Shown here: piece by piece, positions 1,406 through 45,186 of the stretch
How positions within the stretch are numbered: position 1 is the first letter of the stretch
How the letters are laid out: each line of letters opens with the position of its first letter
Source of the DNA: an uncultured Planctomycetales bacterium
Lineage (GTDB): Bacteria > Omnitrophota > Gorgyraeia > Gygaellales > Profunditerraquicolaceae
Direction: 5' to 3'
Assembly: GCA_964645795.1 (NCBI GenBank)
Contig: CAZYCL010000004.1
Span: 21,830 to 85,829, forward strand
DNA length: 64,000 bases
Position numbers and translations under genes: made by a program
Notes under the pieces: model-generated
Database searches by the model: none
What the model was told of the DNA's origin: nothing
The model's input: the letters and a program-made list of their open reading frames with translations, nothing else

Positions 1406-2155
1406 ATGGAAATGAAGAAAGATGTGCATCTGACAGGCAAGGACCTGACGGCGATGGTGCAATTGCGGCCGCAGGATGTGGGAAAATACGCGATCGTGCC
1501 CGGGCCGCGGGACAGGCTTGAGGTCTTACTGAAGAAGATCGAGAATCCGGTGAAGAACTTCTCTTTTATGGAATATTCCATGTATACCGGAACGCTTGGC
1601 GGGATAAAGGTCAGCGCTATAAATGGAGGAAGGTTCTCTACCGATACCTCCATAACTACCGAAGTAATGTGTAACGCCCAAATCCCCAATATTATCCGTA
1701 TCGGCACCTGCGGGGCCCTCGATGAGAATATCAAGGTCGGAGACCTGATCGTGGTGGATAAGGTGCTGCGCGGAGACGGGGTGACCCCTTATTATGTGGA
1801 TTCTAAATTCGAGACTAAAGCCGATAGAAAAATCGCCGATACTTTATTTGAAGTAGCTAAGGGTATGGGCGTCAATGTTCACCGCGGCACAACCTGGACC
1901 ACCGATGCGCTTTTGCGCGAAACCAGGGAGTTAGTCGAGGCCAAGCGCAAAGAAGGCGCGATAGCAGTAGATATGGTATCATCGACGCTGATAACCATAG
2001 CCCAGACTTACAACATCAAGGCTGGCTCGATTTTGGCGGTAAGCGATAACGTGATCACCGCAGAGATGGGCTTCATGAACCCGCTCTATTATATGGCGGA
2101 GTCGAACCTGATCACGATAGCGCTGGAGGCAGTTAAGAAGCTGGAAGGAAAGTAA
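1406..2155 (+). CDS. nucleoside phosphorylase, PNP/UDP family 1 (DeoD-type); candidate 5'-methylthioadenosine / 5'-deoxyadenosine phosphorylase
   Basis: Motifs align with DeoD/UDP phosphorylases: 'YAIVPGPRDR' matches 'MPGDPLRA'; 'RIGTCGAL' matches 'RVGSCGA'; 'VDMVSST...SDN' matches 'VEMEAA...SDH'. First gene of an operon that continues with MtnA. Confidence 0.65.
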   Translation: MEMKKDVHLTGKDLTAMVQLRPQDVGKYAIVPGPRDRLEVLLKKIENPVKNFSFMEYSMYTGTLGGIKVSAINGGRFSTDTSITTEVMCNAQIPNIIRIGTCGALDENIKVGDLIVVDKVLRGDGVTPYYVDSKFETKADRKIADTLFEVAKGMGVNVHRGTTWTTDALLRETRELVEAKRKEGAIAVDMVSSTLITIAQTYNIKAGSILAVSDNVITAEMGFMNPLYYMAESNLITIALEAVKKLEGK

Positions 2156-2264
2156 CATTCGTTTGTATCGCGTATTGTGTTGTGCGTATTGTGTAAAATC
2201 TTAAAGCCTTTAAGTTTTACGCACGACGCAAAACACATGATGCAATACGGAACAGGAATAAAAG

Positions 2265-3194
2265 ATGAACTATTCACCTTTATTCTGGCCGATAAAATTG
2301 GAAGGCAGCGTCATCCATATCCTGGATGAAACGCAGCTGCCAAAGAAGCTTGTCTATATCAAGGCCCGGGATCATAAGCAGGCCATAAAGGCCATAAAAG
2401 AGATGAAGACCCGGGCAGTGGGCCAGGTGCTTTTGGTGATGTATATCTTCCTATTGGTAGCCAGGAAAAATAAAGGCAAGAAGAATCTTATTTCTACGTT
2501 AGAGAAGCTCGCTTCCCAGATAAATTCCAGCCGTCCGACGCTGCCTTTTAAAGTCCTGACAGATATGGTGTTGGGCTGGGCAGCGGGCGAGGCGCCTTTA
2601 GAGAAAAGCATCCAGGGTTTTCTTGAAGGCCTGAAGGCCAGGCGCCTGGAGCAGGCCAGGAAAGCCGCCCAGATGCTCGATAATAAAGATGCGGTGCTTA
2701 CTCACTGCAATATCAGCGGACTGATGCCGCTAATAGGAGAGTTGGCGCGCCAGCAGGGAAAGTCCATAAGCTTCTTTGTCACCGAGACCCGCCCCTATCT
2801 GCAGGGGTCGCGCCTCACCGCCTGGGAGTTGCAGCGCGCGGGCTTTGACGTGACGGTGATCTGCGACAATATGGTAGCCCAGGTGATGCACGAGGCCAAG
2901 ATAAAGAAAGTTATCGTGGGTGCGGACCACCTGGCCAGAAACGGCGATATCGCCAATAAGATCGGCACCTACCAGATAGCCCTGCTTGCCAGGCATTTTC
3001 ATATACCTTTTTATGTGATATGCCCTCCGGCATCAAAGGCGGAGAGCGGGCGCGATATCGTCATTGAAGTGCGCCCGGATAAAGAAGTGCTGGAGTATAA
3101 GGGGATGGCCTTTGCGCCAAAAGGGGCAAAGGCGTATTATCCGGCCTTTGACGTTACGCCGCGCGAACTTATTACCATGCATATCTATTTATAG
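2265..3194 (+). CDS. mtnA: S-methyl-5-thioribose-1-phosphate / 5-deoxyribose-1-phosphate isomerase (MtnA, eIF-2B alpha/beta/delta family)
   Basis: Characteristic MtnA motifs 'VTETRPYLQGSRLTAWEL', 'VGADHLARNGDIANKIGTYQIAL' and 'PAFDVTP'. Ends with a TAG stop. Confidence 0.8.
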   Translation: MNYSPLFWPIKLEGSVIHILDETQLPKKLVYIKARDHKQAIKAIKEMKTRAVGQVLLVMYIFLLVARKNKGKKNLISTLEKLASQINSSRPTLPFKVLTDMVLGWAAGEAPLEKSIQGFLEGLKARRLEQARKAAQMLDNKDAVLTHCNISGLMPLIGELARQQGKSISFFVTETRPYLQGSRLTAWELQRAGFDVTVICDNMVAQVMHEAKIKKVIVGADHLARNGDIANKIGTYQIALLARHFHIPFYVICPPASKAESGRDIVIEVRPDKEVLEYKGMAFAPKGAKAYYPAFDVTPRELITMHIYL

Positions 3195-3203
3195 GAAGGG
3201 AGA

Positions 3204-4211
3204 ATGATGTTTTCAAGCAGAGAAAGGAAATTAAGGAAAGAGCTTATCGTGACAGGCAGAGAAATTTATAAAATGCGCCTTGTAGCGGCAAGCTCGGGCA
3301 ACCTAAGCGTGCGTCTTGATGACGAGCATATTTTGATCACCTCTACGGGTTCGATGCTGGGGAGGCTTGCTCCCGGAGACGTCTTGAAGGTAAATTTTAT
3401 TTCAGCCACCAAAGACGCAAAAAAGCGCGTTACTTCGGAGTTCCCGCTGCATCAGCTTATCCATAAGAACTTCCCCGGCAAGGCCGTAGTGCACTGCCAT
3501 CCGGCCCTGACTAACGGATATTTTGCGGTATGCTCCGATATCAAAATGCTTACCTTTGAAGGCAAGCTGTATCTGTCGAGCGTGCCGGTAGTCATTCAAG
3601 AAACGCCGGCGGTGACCAGGCCCGAAGAGGTAGTCGAAGCATTGAAGTCCAGCAATATCGTGATGCTTAAGAACCACGGGGTTTTAAGCATTGCAGAAAA
3701 CTTCCATAGCGCGCTTAATCTGGTTGAGATGTTGGAGGAGGCGGTAAGGAGCGCGGGGCTGGCTCGTCTGTTCAAAAAAAATATCCTGGATGAACTTGAT
3801 AAAGAGTTAAAAGAAGATTTTGCGCAGGATGCGGCATATCCGATGTTCAGCCACCAACACATCCAGGCAATCGTCGATTTGGTCAATAGAGATGAGTTTA
3901 TCTCACAAAAGGGTAAAGAGATGGACCTCACCGTAGAGCTGGCGATATGCCTGGACGGCACGGATAAAACCTTTAAGTTCAGCTTTGAAAAAGGTAGAAT
4001 AGTGAAGTTAGAGAACGACGCGCAGGCGCCGTTCGTCATCTCGGCGCCGGCGGAAGTCTGGCAGCAGGTGTTTTTGGGAAAGCTCGATTCGTTTGTCGCG
4101 GTGACTCAGGGCAAGATGAAGCTTAAAGGAGAGCTGGGCAAGCTTTCGCGCTGGTATGTGCCTTTTAGCAGGCTCTTTGAGCTATTTAGAAAAGTAAAGA
4201 TCAGCCTTTAA
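3204..4211 (+). CDS. class II aldolase/adducin-domain protein (MtnB/Ald2/DrdA/FucA-like) fused to C-terminal SCP2 sterol-carrier domain
   Basis: N-terminal ~200 aa carries class II aldolase signatures ('AASSGNLSVR', 'HCHP', 'LKNHGVLSIAENF'). C-terminal ~110 aa ends in SCP2-like 'LGKLDSFVAVTQGKMKLKGELGKLSRW'. The fusion is unusual. Confidence 0.65.
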   Translation: MMFSSRERKLRKELIVTGREIYKMRLVAASSGNLSVRLDDEHILITSTGSMLGRLAPGDVLKVNFISATKDAKKRVTSEFPLHQLIHKNFPGKAVVHCHPALTNGYFAVCSDIKMLTFEGKLYLSSVPVVIQETPAVTRPEEVVEALKSSNIVMLKNHGVLSIAENFHSALNLVEMLEEAVRSAGLARLFKKNILDELDKELKEDFAQDAAYPMFSHQHIQAIVDLVNRDEFISQKGKEMDLTVELAICLDGTDKTFKFSFEKGRIVKLENDAQAPFVISAPAEVWQQVFLGKLDSFVAVTQGKMKLKGELGKLSRWYVPFSRLFELFRKVKISL

Positions 4212-4229
4212 AATTACGGAGGTGCGATA

Positions 4230-5018
4230 ATGGATTGGGGTATGAAGAACCGGCTGCAGAGGCTTATTCCCGACGGCAAGTGTTTTTTTATGCCGATAGA
4301 CCACGGCTACTTTCAGGGGCCGACCCGCTGCCTGGAGAAGCCAGGGGAGACTATCAAGCCTTTGCTTAAGTATTGTGACGGGCTGTTTGTCAGCCGCGGG
4401 GTATTGCGCTCATGCGTGGATACTGCAATTGAAAAGCCGATAATCCTGCGCGTTTCCGGAGGGACAAGCATGGCCGGAAAAGACTTGGCCAACGAAGTGA
4501 TCACTACCTCTATCGAAGAGATCGTGCGGCTTAATGCCAGTGCCGTAGGCGTATCGGTATTTGTGGGCAGCGATTACGAAAAACAAACCCTGCAGAACCT
4601 GGCGGGCCTGGTAAATGAATGCGAAGGTTACGGCATACCGGTCATGGCTGTAACGGCAGTAGGAAAAGAGATGGAGAAGCGCGAAGCCCGTTACCTTGCC
4701 CTTGCCTGCCGCATCTGCGCCGAGCTTGGCGCCAAGGTCGTCAAGACCTACTGGTGCGAAAAGGATTTTGACAAAGTGGTAGCGGGGTGTCCGGTGCCGG
4801 TAGTTGTTGCCGGCGGGCCGAAGTGCGAGAGCGAAAAAGAAGTGTTTGAGTTCGTCCATGACGGGATGCAAAAAGGGGCGATAGGTATAAACCTGGGCAG
4901 GAATGTCTGGCAGAGCCCGCATCCGGCGGCAGTTGCCAAAGCCTTAAGGGCGATAGTGCACGAAAAAGCATCGGTGAAGCAGGCGCTGGGTATATTCGCT
5001 GAAGCAAAAAAGAGCTAA
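4230..5018 (+). CDS. DhnA/FbaB-family class I aldolase (ADH-synthase / LsrF-like)
   Basis: 262 aa. TIM-barrel class I aldolase pattern with candidate Schiff-base lysine context 'KVVKTYW' and 'GAIGINLGRNVWQ'. Resembles archaeal-type DhnA aldolases. Confidence 0.6.
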   Translation: MDWGMKNRLQRLIPDGKCFFMPIDHGYFQGPTRCLEKPGETIKPLLKYCDGLFVSRGVLRSCVDTAIEKPIILRVSGGTSMAGKDLANEVITTSIEEIVRLNASAVGVSVFVGSDYEKQTLQNLAGLVNECEGYGIPVMAVTAVGKEMEKREARYLALACRICAELGAKVVKTYWCEKDFDKVVAGCPVPVVVAGGPKCESEKEVFEFVHDGMQKGAIGINLGRNVWQSPHPAAVAKALRAIVHEKASVKQALGIFAEAKKS

Positions 5019-5023
5019 ATTCC

Positions 5024-6055
5024 ATGAAAGTAGCAATGTACTACAACAACCGGGATGTGCGCATCCAGGAGATGCCCAAGCCCGAGATCGGCCCTGACGA
5101 GCTCCTGGTAAAGGTCGTCTCCAGCGGTATCTGCGGCAGCGATGTCCTGGAGTGGTACAGGCTGAAAAAAGCGCCGCTGGTCCTGGGGCATGAGATATCC
5201 GGCGAGATCGCGGAAGTAGGCAGCGAGGTGAGCGGCCATAAAGTAGGTGAGCGCGTTTTTGTCTCCCATCATGTACCCTGCAACCGCTGCCGTTATTGCC
5301 TCAGCGGCAATCACACCGTCTGCTCAACCCTGCATACTACCAACTTCTATCCCGGCGGATTCGCAGAATACCTGCGTGTGCCGGCGCTTAACGTTGACCG
5401 TGGGACATTTATATTACCCGAAGAGGTATCTTTTGACGAAGCTACTTTCATCGAGCCGTTGGGTTGCGTCATACGCGGCCAGAGGCTCGCAGAGCTTAAG
5501 ACCGGCCAGACAGTATTGATACTGGGAGCGGGGATCTCCGGGCTCCTGCATTTATTGACTGCCAAGATTAACGGCGCCGCAAGGATTTTGGCTACCGATA
5601 TCAGCGACTTTAGGTTGAAAACCGCCAAAAACCTGGGGGCTGATGCGGTAATCAACGCCCAGGAAGACGTGCTGGAAATATTGCGGGAGCTAAATGACGG
5701 ACGGGGCGCAGACCTGGTGATCATCTGCACGGGCGCGTATCCTGCGTTTCTGCAGGGGCTGCAGTGCGTAGATAAGGCCGGCACCATACTTTGTTTTGCC
5801 GCAACCGAACCCGAAGTGACCCTGCCCGTGCCGGTAAATGATTTCTGGCGCCAGAGCATAAAAATAATCCATTCTTACGGCGCAGCACCCCTTGATCTAC
5901 AGACCGCTATCGACCTTTTATCCGGCAAAAAAGTTGCGGTAGAAGATCTTATTACCCATAGACTGCCGCTTGCTCAGACAGGACTGGGGTTCAAATTAGT
6001 CGCCGAGGCTAAAGACTGCATCAAGGTGATCATTCGGCCGCACAAAACCGCATAA
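5024..6055 (+). CDS. Zn-dependent alcohol dehydrogenase (MDR superfamily)
   Basis: 'GICGSDV', 'GHEISGEI' and structural-Zn cysteine cluster 'CNRCRYCLSGNHTVC'. Rossmann motif 'LILGAGISG'. Confidence 0.8.
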   Translation: MKVAMYYNNRDVRIQEMPKPEIGPDELLVKVVSSGICGSDVLEWYRLKKAPLVLGHEISGEIAEVGSEVSGHKVGERVFVSHHVPCNRCRYCLSGNHTVCSTLHTTNFYPGGFAEYLRVPALNVDRGTFILPEEVSFDEATFIEPLGCVIRGQRLAELKTGQTVLILGAGISGLLHLLTAKINGAARILATDISDFRLKTAKNLGADAVINAQEDVLEILRELNDGRGADLVIICTGAYPAFLQGLQCVDKAGTILCFAATEPEVTLPVPVNDFWRQSIKIIHSYGAAPLDLQTAIDLLSGKKVAVEDLITHRLPLAQTGLGFKLVAEAKDCIKVIIRPHKTA

Positions 6056-6057
6056 AC

Positions 6058-7500
6058 ATGAGCCTTAAACAAAAGATAACGAACCCTTCGAACGCAGAAA
6101 CGATCGCTGAGGTTGATCTTCTGGAGGGTAAAGGAATCCTGCAGAAGCTCTCTGCTGCCAGAAAGGCCTTTGACAAAGGGCCGTGGAGCGGGTTTTCGCT
6201 TTCGCAAAGGAAAGAGGTGATCTTAAAGATCAGCCAGGGTATACTGGATAAGGCAGCAGAGCTTGCTGCCTTAGAGACGCGCAACTCCGGCAAACCCATA
6301 AAAGAGACTACTTTTATGGATATACCTTCCAGCTCCAAGACCTTTGAATACTTCGGCAATAACCTCGAAAGGCTTTTGGCGGATGAAGAAGTGGGGATAT
6401 CCGCGGAGGCAGAGGCCCGGCTCCTGCGTCAGCCCCACGGGGTTGTAGTCCTGATCGTCCCGTGGAATTATCCTCTGCTTATTGCCTCCTGGAAAGCGGC
6501 GCAGGCGCTTGCCGCCGGCAATACCGTGCTTTTAAAACCATCAGGCCTTACTCCGCTAACCGCTATGGAATTGGAAAAGATAATTCTTGAAAGCGGGATC
6601 CCTGAAGGGGTATTTAGCGTAGTCAATGCTACCGGAGATATGGTGGGTGAGCTTCTGTGCGCCGACAAGCATGTTGATATGGTGTCCTTTACCGGTTCAA
6701 ACGAGGTGGGCAGGAAGATCGTCGCCTACGGCACAAGGTTTGCCAAGAAGATGATCATGGAGCTTGGCGGGAAATCCGCCTCCATCGTTATGGATGACGC
6801 GGATATCGAGGTGGCGGTGAACAGCTCGCTTTGTTCCATATTCCTGAACCAGGGGCAGATGTGCACGGCGATGTCGCGTATATTGGTGGATGCCAGGATT
6901 TACGATAGGTTTCTGGAGAGCTTTGCGGCCAAGGCCCGGCGCATCAAGCTGGGCCCCGCAGATGATTTCGAAACCCAGATGGGGCCGCTTATTTCGCATA
7001 ATCAGCGCCTTAAAGTTTTAGATTTTATAGAGAGGGCCAAGAGGGAAGGCGCCAGGGTTGTTTCTGGAGGCAGGATCCCGGAAGCCCCCGCCCTGAAAAA
7101 GGGTTTTTTCTTCGAGCCTACGGTATTGTCCGAGACAACTTCAGCAATGCATATCTTCCAGGAGGAGGTCTTCGGGCCGGTGGCCTGCGTGAGCAAATTC
7201 TCAAGCGTCAATGAAGCAGTTGAGTTAGCCAACTTTACCGATTATGGCCTGGCAGCCTGTGTATGGTCGGCGGATAAATCAAAGGCTCAAAGCATCGGGG
7301 CGCGCATAAATGCCGGGATCTGCTGGATAAATACTTACGGCATGTTCTTCAATGAACTCCCTTACGGCGGGTTCAAACAGAGCGGTTTCGGAAAAGAGCT
7401 GGGCCGCGAGGGCTTCTTGGAGTATAGCCGCCTTAAGAACATGGTCATCGATAAGAGCAAGGATGGCAGGCCCCTGGTGAATTATTGGTACGGTTTCTAG
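6058..7500 (+). CDS. NAD(P)+-dependent aldehyde dehydrogenase
   Basis: ALDH signatures 'ELGGKSA' and catalytic-Cys region 'QGQMCTA'. Also 'GFKQSGFGKELG' and 'LIVPWNYP'. Confidence 0.85.
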   Translation: MSLKQKITNPSNAETIAEVDLLEGKGILQKLSAARKAFDKGPWSGFSLSQRKEVILKISQGILDKAAELAALETRNSGKPIKETTFMDIPSSSKTFEYFGNNLERLLADEEVGISAEAEARLLRQPHGVVVLIVPWNYPLLIASWKAAQALAAGNTVLLKPSGLTPLTAMELEKIILESGIPEGVFSVVNATGDMVGELLCADKHVDMVSFTGSNEVGRKIVAYGTRFAKKMIMELGGKSASIVMDDADIEVAVNSSLCSIFLNQGQMCTAMSRILVDARIYDRFLESFAAKARRIKLGPADDFETQMGPLISHNQRLKVLDFIERAKREGARVVSGGRIPEAPALKKGFFFEPTVLSETTSAMHIFQEEVFGPVACVSKFSSVNEAVELANFTDYGLAACVWSADKSKAQSIGARINAGICWINTYGMFFNELPYGGFKQSGFGKELGREGFLEYSRLKNMVIDKSKDGRPLVNYWYGF

Positions 7501-7503
7501 GCC

Positions 7504-8343
7504 ATGGCGAGATTTCCGGATAAAAGAAAAAAGATACTCGTTATTCTCCTTTCCCTGGCGGTGCTTGGGCTGATATGGTTGCTGGATCATGTCAGCTGGC
7601 AGGGCCTGTCTTTTATCATGTTATACCTGGGGCCGATATTCATCGCTACCTGGTTTGCCGGGGCCATGGCAGGGGCGGGGATATCCCTATGTTCTTCGGC
7701 GATTTGGTCCTTCGATGATTTCGTAGTCTGCCGCAGCGGGGAAGGTTTACACATACCGTTTATAAACACCGCGGTCACATTCCTTTTCTTTCTGCTTTTG
7801 GTATTTTTCATTAGCCGCATCAAGCGTACGCTCGTCCTGGAGGAAGAGTACGCCAACACCGATTATCTTACCAAGGCATATAACGGGAGGTTCTTTCGCT
7901 AGGTGGCCGGTATCGAGATCAAAAAGGCGCGCCGCTTTAAACGCCCCTTTACGATTATGTACTTTGACCTGGATAATTTCAAAGGCGTCAACGATAACTT
8001 CGGCCACAGTGAGGGGGATGCGCTACTGAAAAGGGTGGCGGAGATGGTGAAGCTGGCTGTGCGCTCGATCGATATATTTGCCCGTATCGGAGGGGATGAG
8101 TTTGCCGTGCTTATGCCGGATACGGATTATAACGGCTCGGAGCTTGTGGCCAAGCGCATCCAGGAATGGGTCTTCAGGGTCGCCCAGGAGAAGAACTGGC
8201 CGGTCACCGCCAGCATCGGGCTGGTTACCTGCATCGAAACCCCCGCTACTGCCGATGAGATGATCAAATGGGCGGATACTGTAATGTACCGGGCAAAAAA
8301 CGGCGGGAAAAACAGGATCGTACATGAAGAGTGCAAGGCTTGA
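7504..8343 (+). pseudogene. membrane-anchored GGDEF diguanylate cyclase interrupted by a single in-frame TAG (7900-7902)
   Basis: ORF 7504-7902 ends '...DYLTKAYNGRFFR*' and ORF 7903-8343 continues in the same frame with 'VAGIEIKKARRFKRPFTIMYFDLDNFKGVND...IGGDEFAVL'. Together they form one uninterrupted GGDEF domain. TAG is used as a genuine stop by mtnA and the ALDH. Confidence 0.6.
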
Positions 8344-9841
8344 TATGGATATCGCCAAATTATTGGAAGAAAAAGCGGCAGGGCTCGGCGAGAAGCCGGC
8401 AATAATCTTCAAGGGCCAGCGTACCAGCTTTTTGCAGCTCAAAGAGTCGTCGTTTAAGCTTGCCAACGCGCTAAAGGGTATCGGTATCGGCAAGGGCGAC
8501 AAGGTCGCCATATACCTGCCTAACTGGCCCCAATACTGCATAAGCTACCTTGCCTGCTGGTCAATAGGGGCGGCCTGCGTGCCGCTGGATTTTATGCTTA
8601 CGGAGGATGAGCTGGTTTCCTGTATTAATCATTCCGAGGCCAAGGCCCTGATCGCTAAAAGCAAAGCCAGCCTTTCCTTAGAGAAGATCAAATCCAGGTC
8701 CGAACGGCTGGAAAATATAATCGTCTGCCAGCAGGAGAAAGAGGGTTTTTTCTCATTCGAAGAGCTTATCGAAAAAAGCAGCGCAAATAACCCTCAAGTG
8801 CATATTGAGCCGAAAGATTACGCGATAATCTTTTACACTTCAGGCACCACAGGAAAGCCGAAAGGGGTCTTGATAAATTACCAACAGTTGGAGGCGCCTC
8901 CCAAGTCCATGACCTTCTTTGTGGATTTAAAACATGAAGATATCGCTTTAAGCGCGCTCCCTTTTTCCCATCTGGGAGGGCTTATCTATCTGCAGAACTG
9001 TATAGTCTACGGGATCACCGTAGTTCTGATGGACAGGTTTTCTACGCACGAGTTTCTTAAAAACGTGCAGGATTACCGCGTCAGCTGTTTCTGGCTGGTT
9101 CCCTCGATGTACTACGCGCTGTTGCAGCTAAAGGATTTTGAGAGTTTTAATATGGAAAGCGTGCGCTGGATGGTGATATTCGGCGCTCCAAGCTCTGCGG
9201 ATGCGCTGAGGAGATTCCATGCCCACTGCCCAAAGACCATCCTTCTTAACGGCTGGGGCATGACCGAGACCAATGCCCCGACCTGTGTTATCCCCATGGG
9301 CTCAGAAAAGATTGAGAGCGTAGGCCGCCCCGTGCCTTGGGTTGAGGTCAAGATATTCGATGATAACGATAAGGAATTACAGCAGGGCCAGGCCGGAGAG
9401 ATAGTGGTTAGAGGCTGGGTGGTTACCGACGGATACTTCAAGGACCCTGAGCTTACGGCCCAGACGATGCGCAACGGGTGGTTTCATACCGGTGACTTGG
9501 GCAGATTTGACCGTGACGGATACCTTTACATCGTGGGCAGGAAGAAGGAGATGATCAAGGTAGCCGGTGAGATCGTCTTTGAACCGGAGGTGGAGAGCGT
9601 GATCCTTAAGCATCAGGCAGTGGCCGAGGCAGCGGTAATCGGCGTGCCGGACAAGCTCAGAGGCGAAGTGCCCAAGGCATTTGTGGTGCGCAAGGAAGGC
9701 TCGAGCCTCAGTGAAGAAGAGCTGCGCTCTTTCTTAAAAGAGCATCTTGCGCATTACAAGATCCCGCATTATTTTGAATTCCCTTCCCAGCTCCCCAAGA
9801 ACCGCACGGGTAAGACCGATAAGGAGATCCTGAGGAAATAA
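8324..9841 (+). CDS. AMP-dependent acyl-CoA synthetase/ligase (FadD-like)
   Basis: AMP-binding signature 'IFYTSGTTGKPKGV', 'GWGMTET' and the C-terminal 'PKNRTGKTDK' lysine motif. An alternative ATG at 8345 would avoid overlap with the upstream GGDEF stop. Confidence 0.8.
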   Translation: MKSARLDMDIAKLLEEKAAGLGEKPAIIFKGQRTSFLQLKESSFKLANALKGIGIGKGDKVAIYLPNWPQYCISYLACWSIGAACVPLDFMLTEDELVSCINHSEAKALIAKSKASLSLEKIKSRSERLENIIVCQQEKEGFFSFEELIEKSSANNPQVHIEPKDYAIIFYTSGTTGKPKGVLINYQQLEAPPKSMTFFVDLKHEDIALSALPFSHLGGLIYLQNCIVYGITVVLMDRFSTHEFLKNVQDYRVSCFWLVPSMYYALLQLKDFESFNMESVRWMVIFGAPSSADALRRFHAHCPKTILLNGWGMTETNAPTCVIPMGSEKIESVGRPVPWVEVKIFDDNDKELQQGQAGEIVVRGWVVTDGYFKDPELTAQTMRNGWFHTGDLGRFDRDGYLYIVGRKKEMIKVAGEIVFEPEVESVILKHQAVAEAAVIGVPDKLRGEVPKAFVVRKEGSSLSEEELRSFLKEHLAHYKIPHYFEFPSQLPKNRTGKTDKEILRK

Positions 9842-9910: not shown

Positions 9911-10933
9911 ATGAGAGATATTAAAGAATTAAGCCTTCAGGAATTGCAGACAGTTCTCAAGCAATGGGGTGAGAAAGATTTTCGGGCCAAGCAGATCCTT
10001 GAGTGGATATACTCAAAGGCCAAGCTTGATTTTAGCGGGATGAGCAGCCTTTCTGGGCCTTTGCGTAAAAAGCTGGAGCAGCAGTTTTTTATCAGCGGAT
10101 TGTCCCTGGTAGAGGCTTTAAGCGCGCGCGACGGGACCGAGAAGCTGCTTTTTAAGACGCGGGATGCAAATTTTATCGAATCCGTGATCATCCCTGCCGA
10201 GGGCAGGGTCAGCGTATGCCTGTCTACCCAGGCAGGCTGCAGGTTTGCCTGCAAATTTTGCGCCAGCGGCGCCGGCGGATTCAAAAGGAACCTCTCTTGG
10301 CAGGAGATCATCGATCAACTGCTGCATATAAAATCCCGCTCTCCGAAGCTCTCTCATGTGGTATTCATGGGGACTGGCGAGCCGCTGGACAATTACGACA
10401 ATCTGCTGCGGGCGATAAGGCTGATTAATTCAAGCCAGGGTTTTGCCATCGGGGCACGCCGGATCACGATTTCTACCTGCGGCCTGATTCCTCAGATCAG
10501 GAAGCTGGCAGGAGAGGGGCTGCAGATCGAGTTATCCGTTTCGCTGCATGCCTCCAGCGACGCCCAGAGGAGCACAGTCATGCCGGTAAACAAAAAATAT
10601 CCGCTCAAACTTTTACTGGACGCCTGCAGGGATTATATAAAACAGACTCACCGCCAGGTGACTTTCGAGTACTGCCTTATCGAAGGGTTTAATTCGGATT
10701 TGCAAAATGCCCGGGATTTGAGTAAAATGCTTAAGGGCCTGAACTGCAAGGTCAACATAATCGCGGTCAACCCCATAAAGGAGTCCGGCGCCAGGGTTTG
10801 TAACAAGATGCAGGCGATATTTTTCCGCGACCGTCTTTTAAAAGAAGGAATAACGGCGACAATCAGGAAGTCGCGCGGCGATGATATCAACGCTGCCTGC
10901 GGGCAGCTGAGGCTGCGGTATGAAAAGAAATAG
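9911..10933 (+). CDS. rlmN: 23S rRNA (adenine2503-C2)/tRNA methyltransferase RlmN, radical SAM
   Basis: Radical SAM cluster motif 'GCRFACKFCASG' and 'VFMGTGEPLDN'. Conserved C-terminal Cys in 'AACGQL'. Confidence 0.85.
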   Translation: MRDIKELSLQELQTVLKQWGEKDFRAKQILEWIYSKAKLDFSGMSSLSGPLRKKLEQQFFISGLSLVEALSARDGTEKLLFKTRDANFIESVIIPAEGRVSVCLSTQAGCRFACKFCASGAGGFKRNLSWQEIIDQLLHIKSRSPKLSHVVFMGTGEPLDNYDNLLRAIRLINSSQGFAIGARRITISTCGLIPQIRKLAGEGLQIELSVSLHASSDAQRSTVMPVNKKYPLKLLLDACRDYIKQTHRQVTFEYCLIEGFNSDLQNARDLSKMLKGLNCKVNIIAVNPIKESGARVCNKMQAIFFRDRLLKEGITATIRKSRGDDINAACGQLRLRYEKK

Positions 10934-11585
10934 GCTTATCGGCGTAATCTTATGTTTTATAGGGTTTTCGGCCTACCTAATCTTTAGCCCTGCCGGCTGC
11001 GGCAGGAAAACGATAAAGAACGTCGGCTCATCCGGCTCTACCATTGTCTGCTTCGGGGACAGCCTTACTTTCGGTTACGGCGTGCCCGGCGGGGATGATT
11101 ACCCGGCGGCGCTTTCGAAGATGCTGAACATGCCGGTAATCAACGCCGGCATCGATGGAGATTCTTCTGGCGAGGCGCTTAAGCGCATCCAATCGGATGT
11201 CCTGGACCGCAACCCGATGCTGGTGATCATTGAGTTCGGGGGAAACGATTTTTTAAGGAAAGTGCCCCTCGAGAACACGATCGCCAATATCAGCCAGATG
11301 GCGGATATGGTGCAGGAGAAAGGCGCGATGGCCGCCATTGTGGATATAAGCTCGGGGATATTCATGGCTACTTACCGTAAGGCCCTTCGCGCTCTTGCGG
11401 AGAACAAGCAGGCGATATTCGTGCCTTCGGTGTTAAGCGGCATCATCACTAATCCCGAAATGAAAAGCGATTTTCTCCATCCCAATGCCGAAGGCTACAG
11501 GCTGATAGCCCAGAGGGTGCACAAGGAGGTCGCCGGCTACCTCAGGCGCAATAGCCCGCCTGCCGTCCAAGCGGATAAAAATTAA
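10920..11585 (+). CDS. SGNH/GDSL-family lipase-esterase (TesA-like), probable lipoprotein
   Basis: 'VCFGDSLTFGYG' GDSL block I, 'GGNDF' block III and 'DFLHPN' block V. N-terminal signal with an 'AGC' lipobox. Confidence 0.7.
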   Translation: MKRNRLIGVILCFIGFSAYLIFSPAGCGRKTIKNVGSSGSTIVCFGDSLTFGYGVPGGDDYPAALSKMLNMPVINAGIDGDSSGEALKRIQSDVLDRNPMLVIIEFGGNDFLRKVPLENTIANISQMADMVQEKGAMAAIVDISSGIFMATYRKALRALAENKQAIFVPSVLSGIITNPEMKSDFLHPNAEGYRLIAQRVHKEVAGYLRRNSPPAVQADKN

Positions 11586-11589
11586 GGTT

Positions 11590-11970
11590 TTGAGGGAGGC
11601 TGATATGAAAAAGATTCTGGTGATAGACGACGACATTAATTTCCTTAAGTTCGTCAAGGCAAGTCTTGAGAAAAAAGGGGGGTTTGAGGTCGCTGTCTGC
11701 AGCGAAGGCCGGCTGGGGTTTGATACGGCCAGGTCCGTCTCGCCCGGATTAATACTCCTGGACGTGATGATGCCGGATATGGAGGGGCCGGATGTCGCCG
11801 CGAAGCTGCGCGCCGACCCGCAGCTAAAAAATATTCCTCTTTTGTTTCTGACCAGCGCCATAACCGAAAAAGAAGAACAGCGCCTTAAGGATAACCGCGG
11901 CTGGCAGTATCTTTCCAAGCCCATAGATGCGGCAAAGCTGTTGGAAGCGGTGAGCGTGTTCTTTAAGTAG
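11590..11970 (+). CDS. single-domain response regulator (CheY-like receiver)
   Basis: 'ILVIDDD', phospho-acceptor context 'LILLDVMMPDMEG', conserved 'LTS' and 'KP' positions. No output domain. Confidence 0.75.
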   Translation: MREADMKKILVIDDDINFLKFVKASLEKKGGFEVAVCSEGRLGFDTARSVSPGLILLDVMMPDMEGPDVAAKLRADPQLKNIPLLFLTSAITEKEEQRLKDNRGWQYLSKPIDAAKLLEAVSVFFK

Positions 11971-11982
11971 CGATTAAAAAAT

Positions 11983-12020
11983 AAAGAGGGCTTTCTATTT
12001 CTAGAAAGCCCTCTTTATTG
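11983..12020 (+). terminator. rho-independent terminator downstream of response regulator
   Basis: Perfect 13-bp stem 'aaagagggctttc / gaaagccctcttt' with a T-rich tail. Confidence 0.6.
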
Positions 12021-12027
12021 TTCTTGC

Positions 12028-12084
12028 AAATTTTTCCTTGTCGCAAAAAATGAACCTAGGCACCACGCTCGCTGCTCGCCTTGT
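12028..12084. repeat. 57-bp direct repeat, copy 1 (2 mismatches to copy at 12275-12331)
   Basis: 'aaatttttccttgtcgcaaaaaatgaacctaggcaccacgctcgctgctcgccttgt' recurs at 12275-12331. Confidence 0.7.
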
Positions 12085-12259
12085 TAATGAGCAGATAACT
12101 TACGCAGCGCAGTAAGCGCGACGTAAGTTATAGGCCGAAGGCCGCCTGCGAATTAATCCCGCCGCCTTTTGGCGGGATCTGCCTCGTGATGGCCGCTTAA
12201 CGCTTGAGCACCTTAAGCATTTATCCAGCGAAATACTTGTGAGCGCAAGCGAACAAGTA

Positions 12260-12296
12260 CGCTTTGGTGCCACCAAATTTTTCCTTGTCGGAAAAA
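12260..12296. repeat. 37-bp direct repeat (copy 1) of the tRNA-Ala 3'-flanking hairpin module
   Basis: 'cgctttggtgccaccaaatttttccttgtcggaaaaa' is identical to 12348-12384. Confidence 0.7.
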
Positions 12297-12331
12297 ATGA
12301 ACCTAGGCACCACACTCGCTGCTCGCCTTGT
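12275..12331. repeat. 57-bp direct repeat, copy 2
   Basis: Near-identical to 12028-12084. Its first part is also a degenerate copy of the tRNA-Ala 3' hairpin. Confidence 0.7.
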
Positions 12332-12347
12332 CGGCTCGCTTAACGCT

Positions 12348-12384
12348 CGCTTTGGTGCCACCAAATTTTTCCTTGTCGGAAAAA
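12348..12384. repeat. 37-bp direct repeat (copy 2), overlaps the tRNA-Ala terminator hairpin
   Basis: Identical to 12260-12296. Confidence 0.7.
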
Positions 12385-12392
12385 TTTGGTGG
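12358..12392 (-). terminator. terminator hairpin immediately 3' of tRNA-Ala (stem includes the encoded CCACCA end)
   Basis: Perfect 15-bp stem 'ccaccaaatttttcc / ggaaaaatttggtgg' with a 5-nt loop. A-run then T-run on the minus strand. Confidence 0.55.
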
Positions 12393-12462
12393 AGCAGAAG
12401 AGATTTGAACTCTCGACCCCTTGCATGCCATGCAAGTGCTCTCCCAGCTGAGCTACTGCCCC
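12387..12462 (-). tRNA. tRNA-Ala (anticodon GGC), CCA encoded
   Basis: Reverse complement folds as a canonical cloverleaf GGGGCAGTAGCTCAGCTGGGAGAGCACTTGCATGGCATGCAAGGGGTCGAGAGTTCAAATCTCTTCTGCTCCACCA. It has the G3:U70 alanine identity pair and anticodon loop AT-GGC-AT. Confidence 0.85.
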
Positions 12463-12610
12463 AAACCCAATTTTACTTATTGTCTTGGGGCATCCTACTG
12501 AGTTCAACTTCAGGAGGATTGTCCCCCAAATACCATATTCCTTGGTCTATATTTATCTGTTGACCGTAGCTATTTTAGACTATAAAATATTGTCCGTCAA
12601 TGAATTTTGC

Positions 12611-12693
12611 GCCGAAGTGGTGGAATGGCATACACGTCGGTCTCAAAAACCGATGGGCTCACGCCCGTAAGGGTTCAACTCCCTTCTTCGGCA
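12611..12693 (+). tRNA. tRNA-Leu (anticodon CAA), type II with long variable arm, CCA not encoded
   Basis: GCCGAAG acceptor pairs with CTTCGGC. Anticodon stem is TCGGT/ACCGA with loop CT-CAA-AA. Variable-arm hairpin GGGC-TCAC-GCCC and T-arm AAGGG-TTCAACT-CCCTT. Closely resembles bacterial tRNA-Leu. Confidence 0.85.
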
Positions 12694-12832
12694 CTTACTC
12701 TAACGGGTTCTCCCGCAAAAATCGTGCGGGATTCCCGCTTACGCGGGATTTCGCCGTACAGAGCTTTAAGGAGCTCATAATTCGGCCATACAACTTACGT
12801 TCGCTGGCGCTCCGTAAGTTGTGGCCTCATTG

Positions 12833-12854
12833 AAACTCCCTTCTTCGGCACTTA
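12833..12854. repeat. direct repeat duplicating the last ~21 nt of tRNA-Leu (att-like)
   Basis: 'aactcccttcttcggcactta' at 12677-12697 (tRNA T-arm and acceptor 3' end) recurs at 12834-12854, about 140 bp downstream. Confidence 0.6.
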
Positions 12855-12941
12855 AAAATCAGGGACGGTTCTCAAGACAATCTAAAAGTGTCCCCTTTAG
12901 GGGGACAGTTCTAAATCAGCTTGAGAACCGTCCCTGATTTT
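12853..12941. terminator. long perfect 23-bp inverted repeat with nested hairpin; bidirectional terminator between tRNA-Leu and convergent response regulator
   Basis: Outer stem 'aaaaatcagggacggttctcaag' (12853-12875) pairs with 'cttgagaaccgtccctgattttt' (12919-12941). Nested hairpin 'gtcccc-ttta-gggggac' in the loop. A/T runs on both sides. Confidence 0.6.
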
Positions 12942-13306
12942 TAGGGGAGGAGCAGGTTGATCTGGCTGAAGAGCTCTTCGAAGTTGCAGGGTTTCATTAG
13001 GTGTTTTATGGAAGCCCCTGCAAGGCTTTCAAAAGCGCTCAAGTCTGCCAGTTGCTGTGCAGAGAAAATGATGATCGGTATTGCCTGGGTCTCGGAGTTG
13101 GCGCGCAGCCTTCTGCATGCTTCGAAGCCGTCCATCTCCGGCATGTTTATATCCAGGAGGATCAGGTCCGGCCTGCCGCGTGAGACCTTCTCCAACGCCT
13201 CCCGTCCGTTAGTCGCGATCTCGGTATTAAAACCCCTGTTCTCCAAAAAATACCCTACGGTCGCCCTTATGGTTTCTTCGTCATCCGCTATGAGCACCTT
13301 TTTCAT
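12941..13306 (-). CDS. single-domain response regulator (CheY-like receiver)
   Basis: 'VLIADDEE', 'LILLDINMPEMDG', 'IPIIIFSA', 'KP'. Convergent with the + strand response regulator across the tRNA locus. Confidence 0.75.
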   Translation of the reverse strand: MKKVLIADDEETIRATVGYFLENRGFNTEIATNGREALEKVSRGRPDLILLDINMPEMDGFEACRRLRANSETQAIPIIIFSAQQLADLSAFESLAGASIKHLMKPCNFEELFSQINLLLP

Positions 13307-13397
13307 ATTGCCTCCTGTTTAAGTTTATTGCATTTTATCGCCAAAATCAAGAGCGAATAGGTAGTCTGATCAGGGTCGGATATGGTATAATTAGCGC

Positions 13398-15629: not shown

Positions 15630-16480
15630 AACCAATGCGTTTGGGTGTGCACATCAGCGGATTCAAGGATTTCCCTGAAAGCCTGGAGAAAGCCAGGGGC
15701 CTAAAGACCAACACCATGCAGATATTTACCCATAGCCCCCGGGTCTGGCAGGGCAAGTCGCCCTCGGAAGAATCGGCAAACGCATTCCGAGAAGCTCGCA
15801 AAAATACGGGGATCTCCCCGGTATTTATCCACGCTTCGTATCTGATAAACCCGGCTTCTCCGGATAAAAAGCTCTACGCTGCCTCCATATCCGCCTGCAT
15901 CCGCGAGGTCAGGGATGCCGGCAGGCTCGGAGCAGATTATTATGTCACCCATATGGGCAGCCACAAGCAGACTTCAGAGGCCGAAGGCATAGAAAGGCTG
16001 GTGGCAGCCCTTAACAAGGTGGCTGAGGCGACATCCGATAGCGGGGTAGTGATCCTTTTGGAGAATACCGCCGGAGGAGGCTCCAGCCTCGGCTACAGCT
16101 TCGCACATCATAAAGAGATCCTGCGCGGCCTCGGGAATAAAGACAGGTTCGGCTTGTGTTTCGATACCTGTCACGCCTATGCCGCCGGTTATAATATAGG
16201 CGATAATAACGGACTGCAGGCTTGCGTCGAAGAAGTCCGGGAGTGCGCGGGATTAGAGCGTTTGAAGCTCATACATTTAAACGATTGCTCCGGCAAACTA
16301 GGCTCGCATCTTGATCGGCACGAGCACCTGGGCAAAGGAGCGCTCGGCAACAAGGGGATAACTCGCATCATAAACCATGCAGAGCTGCGGGATAAGCCGT
16401 TTATACTGGAGACCCCCAAAGATACGCCGAGAAGCGACATTATCAATCTTAATAAGGTAAGGAAGATGAGAGAAGGCTGA
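15626..16480 (+). CDS. nfo: endonuclease IV (AP endonuclease family 2)
   Basis: '[16 protein letters not shown]', '[15 protein letters not shown]' and '[22 protein letters not shown]' are conserved Zn-ligand regions of Nfo. Confidence 0.8.
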
Positions 16481-40469: not shown

Positions 40470-40475
40470 AGGCAT

Positions 40476-43735: not shown

Positions 43736-43753
43736 GTTATAAGAAAGGCGCAA

Positions 43754-45184: not shown

Positions 45185-45186
45185 TT

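Follow-up and report, generated by a model that had tools for sequence, protein, structure and literature searches.

Comparison of 160 related loci gives us high confidence that the six plus-strand open reading frames (ORFs) at 1406–7500 of a 64,000-nucleotide stretch of a Candidatus Omnitrophota genome (the window) are two modules nested together rather than a single operon whose enzymes duplicate one another. Module A comprises genes for a phosphorylase-like protein, an MtnA-like isomerase, a class II aldolase fused to an SCP2 domain and an aldehyde dehydrogenase (ALDH). Module B is a movable two-gene cassette for an LsrF-like protein and a zinc-dependent MDR dehydrogenase, which databases label as a quorum-signal enzyme. 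Both modules probably dispose of pentose-1-phosphates from the waste nucleosides of SAM chemistry (5'-deoxyadenosine and possibly methylthioadenosine), and the cassette, despite its label, may complete the same breakdown as module A by an undescribed route free of aldehydes.

Two nested modules

The six genes are separated, in order, by 109, 9, 18, 5 and 2 bp, and their products match the Pfam families PNP_UDP_1, IF-2B, Aldolase_II plus SCP2, DeoC/DhnA, ADH_N plus ADH_zinc_N, and Aldedh, respectively. This confirms the same-strand run described in an earlier note on this DNA, and the motifs quoted there (TETRPYLQGSRLTAWEL in the MtnA-like protein, ELGGKSA in the ALDH) are present in the translations, as is the catalytic Cys of the ALDH (GQMCTA). 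The gene order is identical in three independent assemblies, and dozens of related loci also carry the cluster, so the arrangement is not due to chance. The run of genes in the same direction extends past 7500. As that note had it, no MtnB/C/D/E/K-type family is matched among the 40 further ORFs of the window, and there is no sugar-regulon context. The host is an anaerobe, and no oxygen-dependent methionine-salvage genes lie nearby.

The comparison across loci does not support the earlier reading of a single operon that holds two aldolases together with both a reductase and a dehydrogenase. The MtnA-like gene lies directly upstream of the aldolase-SCP2 gene in 57 of 57 loci, the phosphorylase-like gene is upstream of it in all 42 loci with room, and the ALDH gene is downstream in all 30 loci that offer 4 kb or more of room. 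An acyl-CoA ligase gene is usually next, following either the ALDH gene or the LsrF-like/MDR pair in 28 of 30 loci. The pair itself sits inside module A in only 14 of 30 loci, and there it occupies any of three positions, with either of its genes first. In a set of 80 species genomes that spans many phyla, about 75 have the LsrF-like and MDR genes side by side, the exceptions being at contig ends; module A genes are found with them in only 11. The cassette mostly stands alone, in many anaerobic phyla: about 65 of the 80 cassette loci have no nearby module A gene, and most have no MtnA nearby. Two loci (L015 and L026) hold the MtnA-like, aldolase-SCP2, ALDH, LsrF-like and MDR genes all together, the first three being only 34–38% identical to those of the window. 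Stand-alone cassettes occur in housekeeping contexts that lack a transporter, a kinase and LsrK/LsrG, as expected of a metabolite-disposal unit.

Family placement of the enzymes

The first gene (1406–2155) encodes a divergent hexameric-type nucleoside phosphorylase-like protein (PNP_UDP_1, 128 bits) that passes no curated NCBIfam model; it comes closest to uridine phosphorylase (115, cutoff 280), and MTAP scores 22 against 275. It retains Udp R30, R91 and T94 and DeoD D204. The Udp Q166/R168 insert is absent, so the protein is not a uridine phosphorylase. The ribose-binding Glu (Udp E198/DeoD E181) is Val, and Arg48 of the neighbouring subunit, a phosphate-site residue, is Met. The PNP/UDP family assignment made earlier stands, and "DeoD-type" is a loose label because no curated model is passed and the ribose-binding Glu is missing. 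The protein also keeps the His with which Udp and DeoD contact the 5'-OH, so a 5'-deoxy substrate is not favoured by this feature.

The second product (2265–3194), a predicted aldose-1-phosphate to ketose-1-phosphate isomerase, scores just under the cutoffs of the NCBIfam MtnA models (253 against 271 and 234 against 279), passes the eIF-2B_rel model (207 against 186), and reaches 116 with the R15P isomerase model and 69 with aIF-2B. Against the PDB, MtnA structures score about 160 bits and R15P isomerase 88, and the catalytic Cys (THCN) and Asp (GAD) motifs align. The third product (3204–4211) joins a class II, metal-dependent aldolase domain (residues 13–182) to a C-terminal SCP2 domain (residues 250–314; 28 bits against the Pfam cutoff of 21.3), the fusion recognised before. 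N33, E79, H97, H99 and H158 are invariant, and the fusion is preserved, even in 35%-identical versions; the metal and phosphate ligands of a class II aldolase are intact. Its best NCBIfam match is "aldolase" PRK08660 (105 against 203), MtnB models score 53–58, and DrdA (6btd) gives only 30 bits. The last module A gene (6058–7500) encodes a predicted non-acylating NAD(P) ALDH, as first assigned (Aldedh, 511 bits), whose best NCBIfam match is BADH (489 against 669) and which passes no equivalog cutoff.

The first cassette gene (4230–5018) encodes an LsrF-like Schiff-base enzyme and proposed thiolase that passes the LsrF thiolase model NF006081 (357 against 297); in the PDB, LsrF scores 251 bits, MJ0400 148 and archaeal FBA 102. 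This product had been called a DhnA/FbaB-family aldolase. We rejected an MJ0400- or FbaB-like identity on the LsrF-like scores and the absence of the catalytic Tyr of DhnA-type aldolases; the protein also has Asn where those enzymes have Ala. D57, H58, K203, Y205, G226, G227, G253 and R254 are invariant among the cassette proteins, and every LsrF ligand residue is kept. The position of LsrF Asp251 is Asn in 77 of 77 cassette proteins and Asp in every LsrF from an lsr context, including those of E. coli, Bacillus and Sagittula. In LsrF, Asp251 is 2.9 Å from the Schiff-base Lys and is the proposed catalytic residue, so the chemistry of this Asn251 subfamily may differ from that of LsrF.

The second cassette gene (5024–6055) was correctly read as a Zn-dependent MDR enzyme; judged from its sequence, it is an NAD-type relative of polyol and threonine dehydrogenases, not an obvious acetaldehyde reductase. 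Among known structures it lies nearest to Tdh, sorbitol DH, ketose reductase and galactitol-1-P 5-DH, and its relatives oxidise penultimate secondary alcohols. The catalytic Zn ligands (C37, H56, E57 and E144), four structural Zn Cys, D192, W44-Y45-R46 and H82-H83 are invariant; it carries the NAD-type Asp signature and has a pocket that is polar as well as basic.

Proposed pathway and alternatives

Published clusters for 5-deoxyribose use and the DHAP shunt combine a phosphorylase or kinase, an isomerase plus a class II aldolase (PMC6079011; PMC10986504). Module A has the same trio layout, with a built-in aldehyde-oxidising step as the extra. No enzyme here passes the equivalog cutoff for MtnP, MtnA or characterised Ald2/DrdA, so the trio are at most putative orthologues of these. 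The salvage operon proposed in the earlier note is supported in its layout, and its nucleoside substrate we infer. It is fairly likely that module A leads from a pentulose-1-phosphate to DHAP and an aldehyde, and an even bet that the substrate is a 5'-deoxy or 5'-methylthio compound. The phosphorylase-like enzyme would free the base to yield (5-deoxy)ribose-1-phosphate, the MtnA-like isomerase would convert this into the ribulose-1-phosphate, and the aldolase-SCP2 fusion would cleave it to DHAP and an aldehyde. The linked ALDH would oxidise the aldehyde and pull the unfavourable cleavage forward, which makes sense given an aldol equilibrium of ~1e-4 in favour of the ketose-phosphate (PMC6079011). 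The acyl-CoA ligase may then activate the resulting acid.

For module B we tentatively propose oxidation followed by thiolysis, a mechanism to which we give clearly less than an even chance. The NAD-dependent MDR would oxidise the penultimate carbon (C4-OH) of 5-deoxyribulose-1-phosphate to 3-hydroxy-2,4-pentanedione-5-phosphate, the known substrate of LsrF; by chemical reasoning, the match is exact. On the LsrF-like enzyme the conserved lysine would hold this diketone as a Schiff base, and transfer of its acetyl group to CoA would leave DHAP and acetyl-CoA, with no free aldehyde formed and no ATP used. Our literature search found no publication supporting this route; if true, it would add an undescribed finish to waste-nucleoside breakdown. 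The module A route together with the module B cassette, both serving SAM-derived waste nucleosides, is our best explanation of the whole, at a little under an even chance.

The LsrF-like protein could instead be a second, class I aldolase that splits the same ribulose-1-phosphates into DHAP and an aldehyde; the MDR would reduce the latter to ethanol or 2-methylthioethanol, so that the aldehyde could leave reductively as well as through the oxidising ALDH. The protein does belong to the DhnA/DeoC class I aldolase superfamily, all cassette proteins lack the distinctive Asp251, the metabolic gene found most often beside the stand-alone cassette is that for a class II aldolase, and an aldolase with an alcohol dehydrogenase is a familiar pairing. 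Indeed, R. rubrum reduces methylthioacetaldehyde and E. coli converts 5-deoxyribose to ethanol (PMC10986504). We nevertheless consider this unlikely, given the missing aldolase Tyr, the Asn in place of Ala, and an LsrF score far above that of ADH synthase or FBA. The MDR, nearest to dehydrogenases of secondary alcohols, scores only 87 against 470 with the aldehyde reductase Ahr and has, besides its NAD-type Asp, invariant Arg and His where acetaldehyde reductases are hydrophobic.

It is quite improbable that the cassette has no functional link to module A, acts on another phosphorylated C5 compound, such as 1-deoxyxylulose-5-phosphate (DXP) or LuxS-derived DPD phosphate, which a dehydrogenase could turn into an LsrF-type diketone or make from one, and sits in the operon only through local Omnitrophota synteny. 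The many stand-alone cassettes suggest such independence, roughly half of the loci with module A have no cassette, DXP oxidised at C4 is also LsrF's substrate by chemical reasoning, and a Sagittula plasmid carries another cluster of a dehydrogenase, a kinase and LsrF. However, insertions of the cassette into the module A operon are seen at no fewer than three positions and in both orientations, and it persists beside deeply divergent versions of that operon; unless co-expression is selected for, this is difficult to account for. LsrK, LsrG, LuxS and DXP-pathway genes never recur beside it.

Catabolism of ordinary purine nucleosides, from ribose-1-phosphate, isomerised directly to ribulose-1-phosphate, to DHAP and glycolaldehyde, then glycolate and perhaps glycolyl-CoA, is distinctly improbable. 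In bacteria this would be a shorter way to the end point of the haloarchaeal non-carboxylating pentose bisphosphate pathway, and it would fit the retained DeoD Asp204 and 5'-OH-contacting His and the lactaldehyde/glycolaldehyde-type enzymes among the ALDH relatives, and the same chemistry suits both modules. Yet the isomerase scores much better as MtnA than as ribose-1,5-bisphosphate isomerase, the aldolase-SCP2 protein reaches 50 against a cutoff of 300 with the haloarchaeal ribulose-1-P aldolase model, and the operon contains no nucleoside transporter or regulator. We know of no described ribose-1-phosphate isomerase.

Downstream genes and the SCP2 domain

After the ALDH gene comes a plus-strand GGDEF gene (7504–8343) made of two abutting same-frame ORFs, with an in-frame TAG read in the sequence at 7900–7902, the same split in three assemblies and the GGDEF domain in the second ORF. 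It is absent between the ALDH and ligase genes of related loci and probably lies outside the pathway. The predicted AMP-forming acyl-CoA ligase (8324–9841, plus strand; 461 against 476 with PRK06187) is closest to long-chain fatty-acid-CoA ligases and may be the fifth gene of module A. The distant versions L011, L015, L026 and L051 lack it, and other Omnitrophota pair it with an MMPL transporter; it may belong with that gene instead. Were the cassette already to yield an acyl-CoA, a ligase beside a cassette without module A would be unaccounted for, as is the role of the SCP2 domain in our best explanation.

A substrate with a hydrophobic 5' substituent on adenosine, such as a radical SAM adenosyl-transfer adduct that module A turns into a lipid-like aldehyde, acid and acyl-CoA, would explain the SCP2 lipid-binding domain, its retention at 35% identity and the fatty-acid type of the ligase, and neighbours such as a GDSL lipase gene in the window, MMPL, and the upstream B12-radical SAM, SRPBCC and MFS genes of related loci point the same way, but the support is from gene neighbourhood alone, that upstream block is missing from the window, we know of no such pathway, and we regard it as very improbable. 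SCP2 domains also bind CoA esters.

The plus-strand gene at 9911–10933 encodes an RlmN-like radical SAM methyltransferase (RlmN_N plus Radical_SAM), a producer of 5'-deoxyadenosine; most related loci, the distant L026 included, likewise have it downstream of their cluster.

Two modules in the six-gene cluster

The six reading frames between 1406 and 7500 lie on the + strand and are separated by gaps of 109, 9, 18, 5, and 2 bp. Their positions agree exactly with those of the earlier note, the motifs quoted there are found in the translations, and the families are confirmed by Pfam. In order, the genes encode a PNP-like protein (PNP_UDP_1; 1406–2155), an MtnA-like protein (IF-2B; 2265–3194), a class II aldolase fused to an SCP2 domain (Aldolase_II and SCP2; 3204–4211), an LsrF-like protein (DeoC/DhnA in Pfam, LsrF in NCBIfam; 4230–5018), a zinc-dependent MDR dehydrogenase (5024–6055), and an aldehyde dehydrogenase (ALDH; Aldedh; 6058–7500). 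Downstream of the ALDH gene, an acyl-CoA ligase is encoded at 8324–9841, also on the + strand. The same locus is found in three independent assemblies, and the names given to close homologs assign the window to Candidatus Omnitrophota. Only one of the six proteins, the LsrF-like one, passes a curated NCBIfam cutoff.

The earlier note had viewed these genes as one operon holding two aldolases, a reductase, and a dehydrogenase; our locus censuses resolve them as two modules. We collected 80 species genomes that carry close relatives of the LsrF-like protein (73–83% identity), drawn from Omnitrophota, Elusimicrobiota, Desulfobaccales and other Thermodesulfobacteriota, Planctomycetota, Chloroflexota, Saganbacteria, Zixibacteria, Fibrobacterota, Nitrospirae, and others. 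The MDR gene adjoins the LsrF-like gene in about 75 of the 80, the five exceptions being contig ends, and the PNP-like, MtnA-like, aldolase–SCP2, and ALDH genes are found beside this pair in only 11. The reverse census started from the aldolase–SCP2 fusion in 80 metagenome loci, with counts limited to loci that have room for the gene in question. The MtnA-like gene is directly upstream of the fusion in 57/57 loci, the PNP-like gene is upstream in 42/42, and the ALDH gene is downstream in 30/30; the acyl-CoA ligase is present in 28/30, and the LsrF-like/MDR pair in only 14/30. Where present, the pair occupies the aldolase/ALDH gap, as in the window, or follows the ALDH or the ligase gene, with its two genes in either order. 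Hence the PNP-like, MtnA-like, aldolase–SCP2, and ALDH genes, usually with the ligase, are a fixed Omnitrophota unit (module A), and the LsrF-like and MDR genes are an autonomous cassette (module B) that is repeatedly nested in it. The association of the two is probably functional, because the insertion points vary and because the cassette persists in two related loci, L015 and L026, whose module A proteins are only 34–38% identical to those of the window.

Module A and the DHAP shunt

The PNP-like protein has its best NCBIfam score with uridine phosphorylase (115 against a cutoff of 280), and falls below the cutoffs of the DeoD models (86–90 against 230–232 bits), the MTAP model TIGR01694 (22 against 275), and the MTAN models (45–57 against 74–169). 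A uridine phosphorylase is ruled out, as the insert with the uracil-binding Gln166/Arg168 is absent, as it is in DeoD; a uridine-specific phosphorylase would have spoken against the earlier reading. In the alignment the phosphate ligands R30, R91, and T94 and the DeoD Asp204 are kept. In DeoD numbering, equivalents of R24, R87, and D204 are present. The ribose-binding Glu (Udp E198/DeoD E181) is replaced by Val and the Arg from the neighboring subunit (R43-type in DeoD) by Met; the His that contacts the 5′-OH is retained. These residues indicate an atypical purine-type enzyme. We looked in the cluster for a kinase in the role of MtnK or DrdK and found none; the place of an MtnP-type phosphorylase, or of a nucleosidase with a kinase, is taken by the divergent PNP_UDP_1 protein.

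Profile comparison did not give the MtnA-like protein a clean assignment between MtnA and the eIF2B type: it narrowly misses the MtnA cutoffs (253/271 and 234/279) and passes the broader eIF-2B_rel model. Its MtnA scores far exceed those for aIF-2B and for ribose-1,5-bisphosphate isomerase (116 against a cutoff of 314), and its motifs with the catalytic Cys and Asp line up with those of the MtnA structures. In the aldolase domain, the phosphate-binding N33, the catalytic E79, and the metal ligands H97, H99, and H158 are invariant even in relatives of 35% identity, in which the SCP2 fusion is also kept. The top NCBIfam model is "aldolase" PRK08660 (105/203), DrdA scores 30 bits, and the MtnB models score 53–58 against cutoffs of 137–226. 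The domain is a deep-branching class II member and at most a candidate ortholog of Ald2/DrdA. We also considered an MtnB-like dehydratase that would feed the MDR and LsrF-like enzymes toward methional. This was rejected on chemistry, since the dehydrated product lacks the C4 hydroxyl and could not undergo retro-aldol cleavage to DHAP, and the low MtnB scores speak against it as well. The ALDH is a standard non-acylating enzyme with no equivalog match in NCBIfam.

Module A shares its three-step logic and clustered layout with the DHAP shunt of R. rubrum, ExPEC E. coli, and Bacillus thuringiensis, which is built from MtnP or MtnN plus MtnK, MtnA/DrdI, and Ald2/DrdA. Each groups an enzyme that cleaves or phosphorylates nucleosides with an isomerase of the MtnA family (in module A, a protein just under the MtnA cutoffs) and a metal-dependent class II aldolase (PMC10986504, PMC6079011), and neither the isomerase nor the aldolase of module A has lost its catalytic residues. 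In contrast to the shunt, the phosphorylase of module A is a divergent hexameric-type PNP/UDP protein that lacks the ribose-binding Glu and is not MtnP, and the aldolase is distant from DrdA and fused to SCP2. Furthermore, the ALDH is always linked and the CoA ligase usually so, whereas the described systems use unlinked aldehyde enzymes (PMC10986504). The aldol equilibrium is about 1e-4 in favor of the ketose-phosphate (Beaudoin et al., PMC6079011), so that an obligatorily linked ALDH would be a sensible addition. Of the DHAP-shunt salvage route proposed in the earlier note, the shunt-like core stands as plausible on these comparisons, its enzymes being at most putative orthologs of those of the shunt, and the supposed second aldolase and reductase are better described as a separate LsrF-like/dehydrogenase cassette. 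Canonical methionine salvage is not encoded here: as the earlier note had said, the window holds no canonical mtnB/C/D/E/K, and no MtnB, MtnC/W/X, MtnD, MtnE, or MtnK family was found by Pfam among its 40 other ORFs. A sugar-catabolic regulon, the context that would have refuted the salvage reading, was found neither among the ORFs of the window nor among the neighbors of the cassette.

Ordinary purine-nucleoside catabolism, running from ribose-1-phosphate through ribulose-1-phosphate to glycolaldehyde, is a less likely reading, which the conserved His and Asp204 of the phosphorylase permit. However, it requires an undescribed ribose-1-phosphate isomerase, and the aldolase domain reaches only 50 of the 300 bits required by the haloarchaeal ribulose-1-phosphate aldolase model NF053831. 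The proteins of module A fail both the aldolase and the isomerase models of the haloarchaeal non-carboxylating pentose bisphosphate pathway. Independently of how the cassette is read, the fixed five-gene Omnitrophota module would be a variant of the DHAP shunt with its own aldehyde-oxidizing step and an SCP2 fusion.

The LsrF-like protein, its dehydrogenase partner, and a candidate route

The fourth gene had been labeled a DhnA/FbaB-type aldolase, an assignment that we replace. Its product passes NF006081 (LsrF, 3-hydroxy-5-phosphonooxypentane-2,4-dione thiolase; 357 against 297 bits) and stays below the cutoffs for ADH synthase (199 against 241–299) and archaeal FBA (127 against 430). Against solved structures it scores 251 bits with E. 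coli LsrF, 148 with MJ0400, and 102 with T. tenax FBA. The cassette protein and the LsrF of the AI-2 (lsr) operon are 46–53% identical and align end to end. Using the ligand and catalytic residues of LsrF described in PMC2728841, we found that Asp57, His58, Lys203, Tyr205, Gly226, Gly227, Gly253, and Arg254 are invariant in 77/77 cassette proteins. Like LsrF, the cassette protein thus has the Schiff-base Lys, the phosphate site, and the Asp57/His58 pair, and it lacks the aldolase Tyr. Asp251 of LsrF, which lies 2.9 Å from the Schiff-base Lys and was proposed as a special catalytic residue (PMC2728841), is the exception: all 77 cassette proteins have Asn there, but the Asp is kept in three LsrFs from lsr-type contexts, those of E. 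coli (lsrACDBFG), Bacillus (ABC transporter, SorC regulator, FGGY kinase, cupin, LsrF), and Sagittula. The N-terminal swap arm of E. coli LsrF is absent from the cassette protein, as it is from Bacillus LsrF.

The DhnA-type class I aldolases (MJ0400 ADH synthase, archaeal FBA, and FbaB) share with the cassette protein the TIM-barrel superfamily, the Schiff-base Lys, and the phosphate-binding loop. Unlike in these enzymes, the position of the catalytic Tyr of MJ0400 and T. tenax FBA (Tyr146) is a gap in the cassette protein, as in E. coli LsrF; at position 251, these two aldolases carry Ala. We could therefore rule out, from the missing Tyr, that the Asn251 clade is a reverted canonical DhnA class I aldolase. 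The partner differs from that of LsrF too, being the MDR rather than LsrK, LsrG, and the Lsr transporter. Neither the window nor the 150 nearest neighbors of the cassette contain LsrK, LsrG, the Lsr ABC transporter, or LsrR. A Pfam census of these 150 neighbors, taken for the stand-alone cassette, returned TPR, HisG, MMPL, FeoB, class II aldolase (5), and AMP-binding ligase (3), and within it no theme of transporter, kinase, LsrK/LsrG, or regulator was found; the setting of the stand-alone cassette is of a housekeeping type and not a nutrient regulon. The cassette protein represents a distinct LsrF-related subfamily, and the Asn251 substitution that defines it tracks the switch of partner gene.

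The structures nearest to the MDR dehydrogenase are threonine, sorbitol, ketose, xylitol, and galactitol-1-phosphate dehydrogenases. No curated model is passed (Tdh, 205 against 458), and homologs are named in their source records only as "L-iditol 2-dehydrogenase" or "zinc-dependent dehydrogenase". With the polyol/threonine Zn-MDRs (Tdh, sorbitol dehydrogenase, galactitol-1-phosphate 5-dehydrogenase) the MDR shares the zinc sites and NAD-type cofactor binding. Members of that group oxidize the secondary alcohol adjoining the chain end. Pairwise identity within the MDR set has a median of 57%, and the residues invariant in it include the Cys/His/Glu/Glu ligands of the catalytic zinc, the four Cys of the structural zinc, and the NAD-type Asp192. 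Also invariant are W44-Y45-R46, directly after the Cys ligand, and H82-H83; these are the MDR's own, unlike in the polyol/threonine enzymes, as is its being locked to an LsrF-like partner. In horse-liver ADH numbering, these positions belong to the hydrophobic pocket of ethanol/acetaldehyde enzymes, and invariant polar and basic residues there argue for a polar or anionic substrate.

It is possible, if doubtful, that the cassette constitutes an undescribed two-enzyme route, present in many anaerobic phyla, for the disposal of 5-deoxyribose, a radical-SAM by-product, by C4 oxidation and thiolysis. We infer its substrates and steps from sequence. The MDR would oxidize the C4 hydroxyl of 5-deoxyribulose-1-phosphate, at the penultimate carbon next to the terminal methyl; oxidation at this carbon is the typical regiochemistry of threonine, sorbitol, and butanediol dehydrogenases. 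The product would be 3-hydroxy-2,4-pentanedione-5-phosphate, the substrate of LsrF. With CoA, LsrF converts this compound to DHAP and acetyl-CoA, as is mirrored in RefSeq product names; the thiolase activity was reportedly established by Marques and colleagues in PNAS in 2014. The LsrF-like enzyme would likewise thiolyze the diketone phosphate to DHAP and acetyl-CoA. The two modules would then start from one and the same ketose-phosphate and end at DHAP, module B irreversibly and with neither free aldehyde nor ATP.

The Asp251Asn change counts against this model of module B. So do the loss of the ribose-binding Glu from a phosphorylase that still retains the His contacting the 5′-OH, the fact that most stand-alone cassettes have no MtnA gene nearby, and the SCP2 domain, for which the model does not account. 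The status of the ligase also counts against it, being uncertain: the ligase is absent from distant versions of module A and accompanies an MMPL transporter elsewhere. In a rival reading, the cassette has nothing to do with module A and acts, for example, on DXP or on a DPD-type compound. The cassette could also coherently be a class I aldolase with an aldehyde reductase, as first suggested, although the missing aldolase Tyr, the similarity at the level of LsrF, and the family and pocket residues of the MDR all speak against it. That the substrate is a hydrophobic 5′-substituted adenosine is suggested only by the SCP2 domain and the lipid-related neighbors.

In the literature we found nothing that links LsrF-type enzymes to 5-deoxyribose, nothing on LsrF-like proteins outside AI-2 or on LsrF with a dehydrogenase, and nothing on the aldolase–SCP2 fusion or on Omnitrophota in connection with MTA, 5′-deoxyadenosine, or AI-2. 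Users of radical SAM enzymes must dispose of 5′-deoxyadenosine, strict anaerobes have many such enzymes, and the disposal routes described to date are, to our knowledge, aldolase-based only. If oxidation and thiolysis by the cassette were correct, it would add an aldehyde-free, energy-conserving route that sidesteps the unfavorable aldol equilibrium, and a highly conserved gene pair (73–85% identity across phyla) now labeled by pipelines as a quorum-sensing enzyme would gain a function. Most proteins annotated as LsrF (AI-2) outside enteric bacteria and Bacillus would then be salvage enzymes, and AI-2 degradation and radical-SAM waste disposal would converge on the same intermediate.

Neighboring genes and related loci

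The co-directional run of genes extends past 7500, with no convincing + strand terminator before about 11980, where a strong bidirectional hairpin with an 18 bp stem (11980–12019) closes it. It is followed, in the 11980–12694 region, by tRNA-Ala(GGC) on the − strand and tRNA-Leu(CAA) on the + strand. Promoter and terminator scans gave counts within about 1.5–2 sd of the shuffled expectation and were of little use for delimiting the transcription unit. A GGDEF diguanylate-cyclase gene (7504–8343), missing at this position in related loci, is split by an in-frame TAG (7900–7902) that separates the membrane part from the GGDEF domain. The identical split in three independent assemblies indicates that this is not a sequencing error, and the gene could be a pseudogene or contain a read-through/recoding site. 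An RlmN-type radical SAM rRNA methyltransferase gene (9911–10933) lies downstream of the cluster here and in most relatives, among them loci L001, L017, L026 (divergent), L088, and many others. RlmN-type enzymes yield 5′-deoxyadenosine, and the proximity may reflect either a functional link or simple synteny.

Directly 5′ of the PNP-like or MtnA-like gene, related Omnitrophota loci (L001 3–7018, L026 442–5220, L051 6–6989, and similar ones) carry a block encoding a B12-binding radical SAM protein, a cyclase, an SRPBCC protein, an MFS transporter, an SDR, and an amidohydrolase_2 protein. A tblastn search of the window for this block gave no match, and its place is taken by two small ORFs (220–777 and 902–1360) without Pfam matches. 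Three independent Logan assemblies (L167–L169) have contigs that start about 12 bases before window position 1, which suggests a repeat or coverage break that halts assembly. Where distant versions of the cluster have another gene in place of the phosphorylase, we ruled out an MtnP; the gene encodes a class IV aminotransferase (regions L026 5263–7514, L015 970–3222, and L051 7086–7889). In some bacteria, enzymes of this class carry out the final step of methionine salvage, and by this analogy the gene may hint at an MTA/methionine link. L026 and L015 also have a truncated IF-2B-like paralog (~160 aa) after the MtnA-like gene.

Four Omnitrophota loci in which the cassette has no module A nearby (L025, L036, L047, and L077, ~10900–15800) show the cassette followed by the same acyl-CoA ligase and an MMPL-family transporter, an arrangement that resembles a FadD–MmpL-type lipid pair. 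The LsrF that is closest to the cassette protein among those of characterized context (53% identity, no N-terminal swap arm) is encoded in the lsr-type operon of Bacillus sp. N5-665 (L082 3939–7783), with a cupin gene, not of the LsrG type, directly upstream of lsrF; this 5.5-Mb record, filed as a plasmid, is presumably a mislabeled chromosome. On the Sagittula sp. P11 plasmid NZ_CP021914.1 (L083 650–6947), an lsrF that encodes Asp251 is clustered with a dehydrogenase and a class II aldolase-family gene. The genes there are a SorC-type regulator, a GlpD-like FAD dehydrogenase, an FGGY kinase, lsrF, and a 397-aa class II aldolase-family protein whose C-terminal half has no family assignment. 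On Rhizobium megaplasmids, genes for DhnA-type aldolases adjoin GlpD-like genes.

The rest of the window encodes anaerobe housekeeping functions (LeuRS, SecA, MurJ, Lnt, LpxL, a NiFe-hydrogenase/complex-I-like set, and sugar-nucleotide genes). A 164-aa protein of the adenosine-specific kinase family (PF04008, 239 bits; 38638–39132) is small, uncommon, and nucleoside-related, and is unlinked to the cluster. The membrane-bound NiFe hydrogenase/complex-I-like module at 40452–50348 comprises three Mrp/NuoL-type antiporter subunits, homologs of the 30-kDa and 49-kDa/NiFe large subunits, NuoH, and a HycI protease, and indicates an anaerobic, hydrogen-cycling lifestyle.
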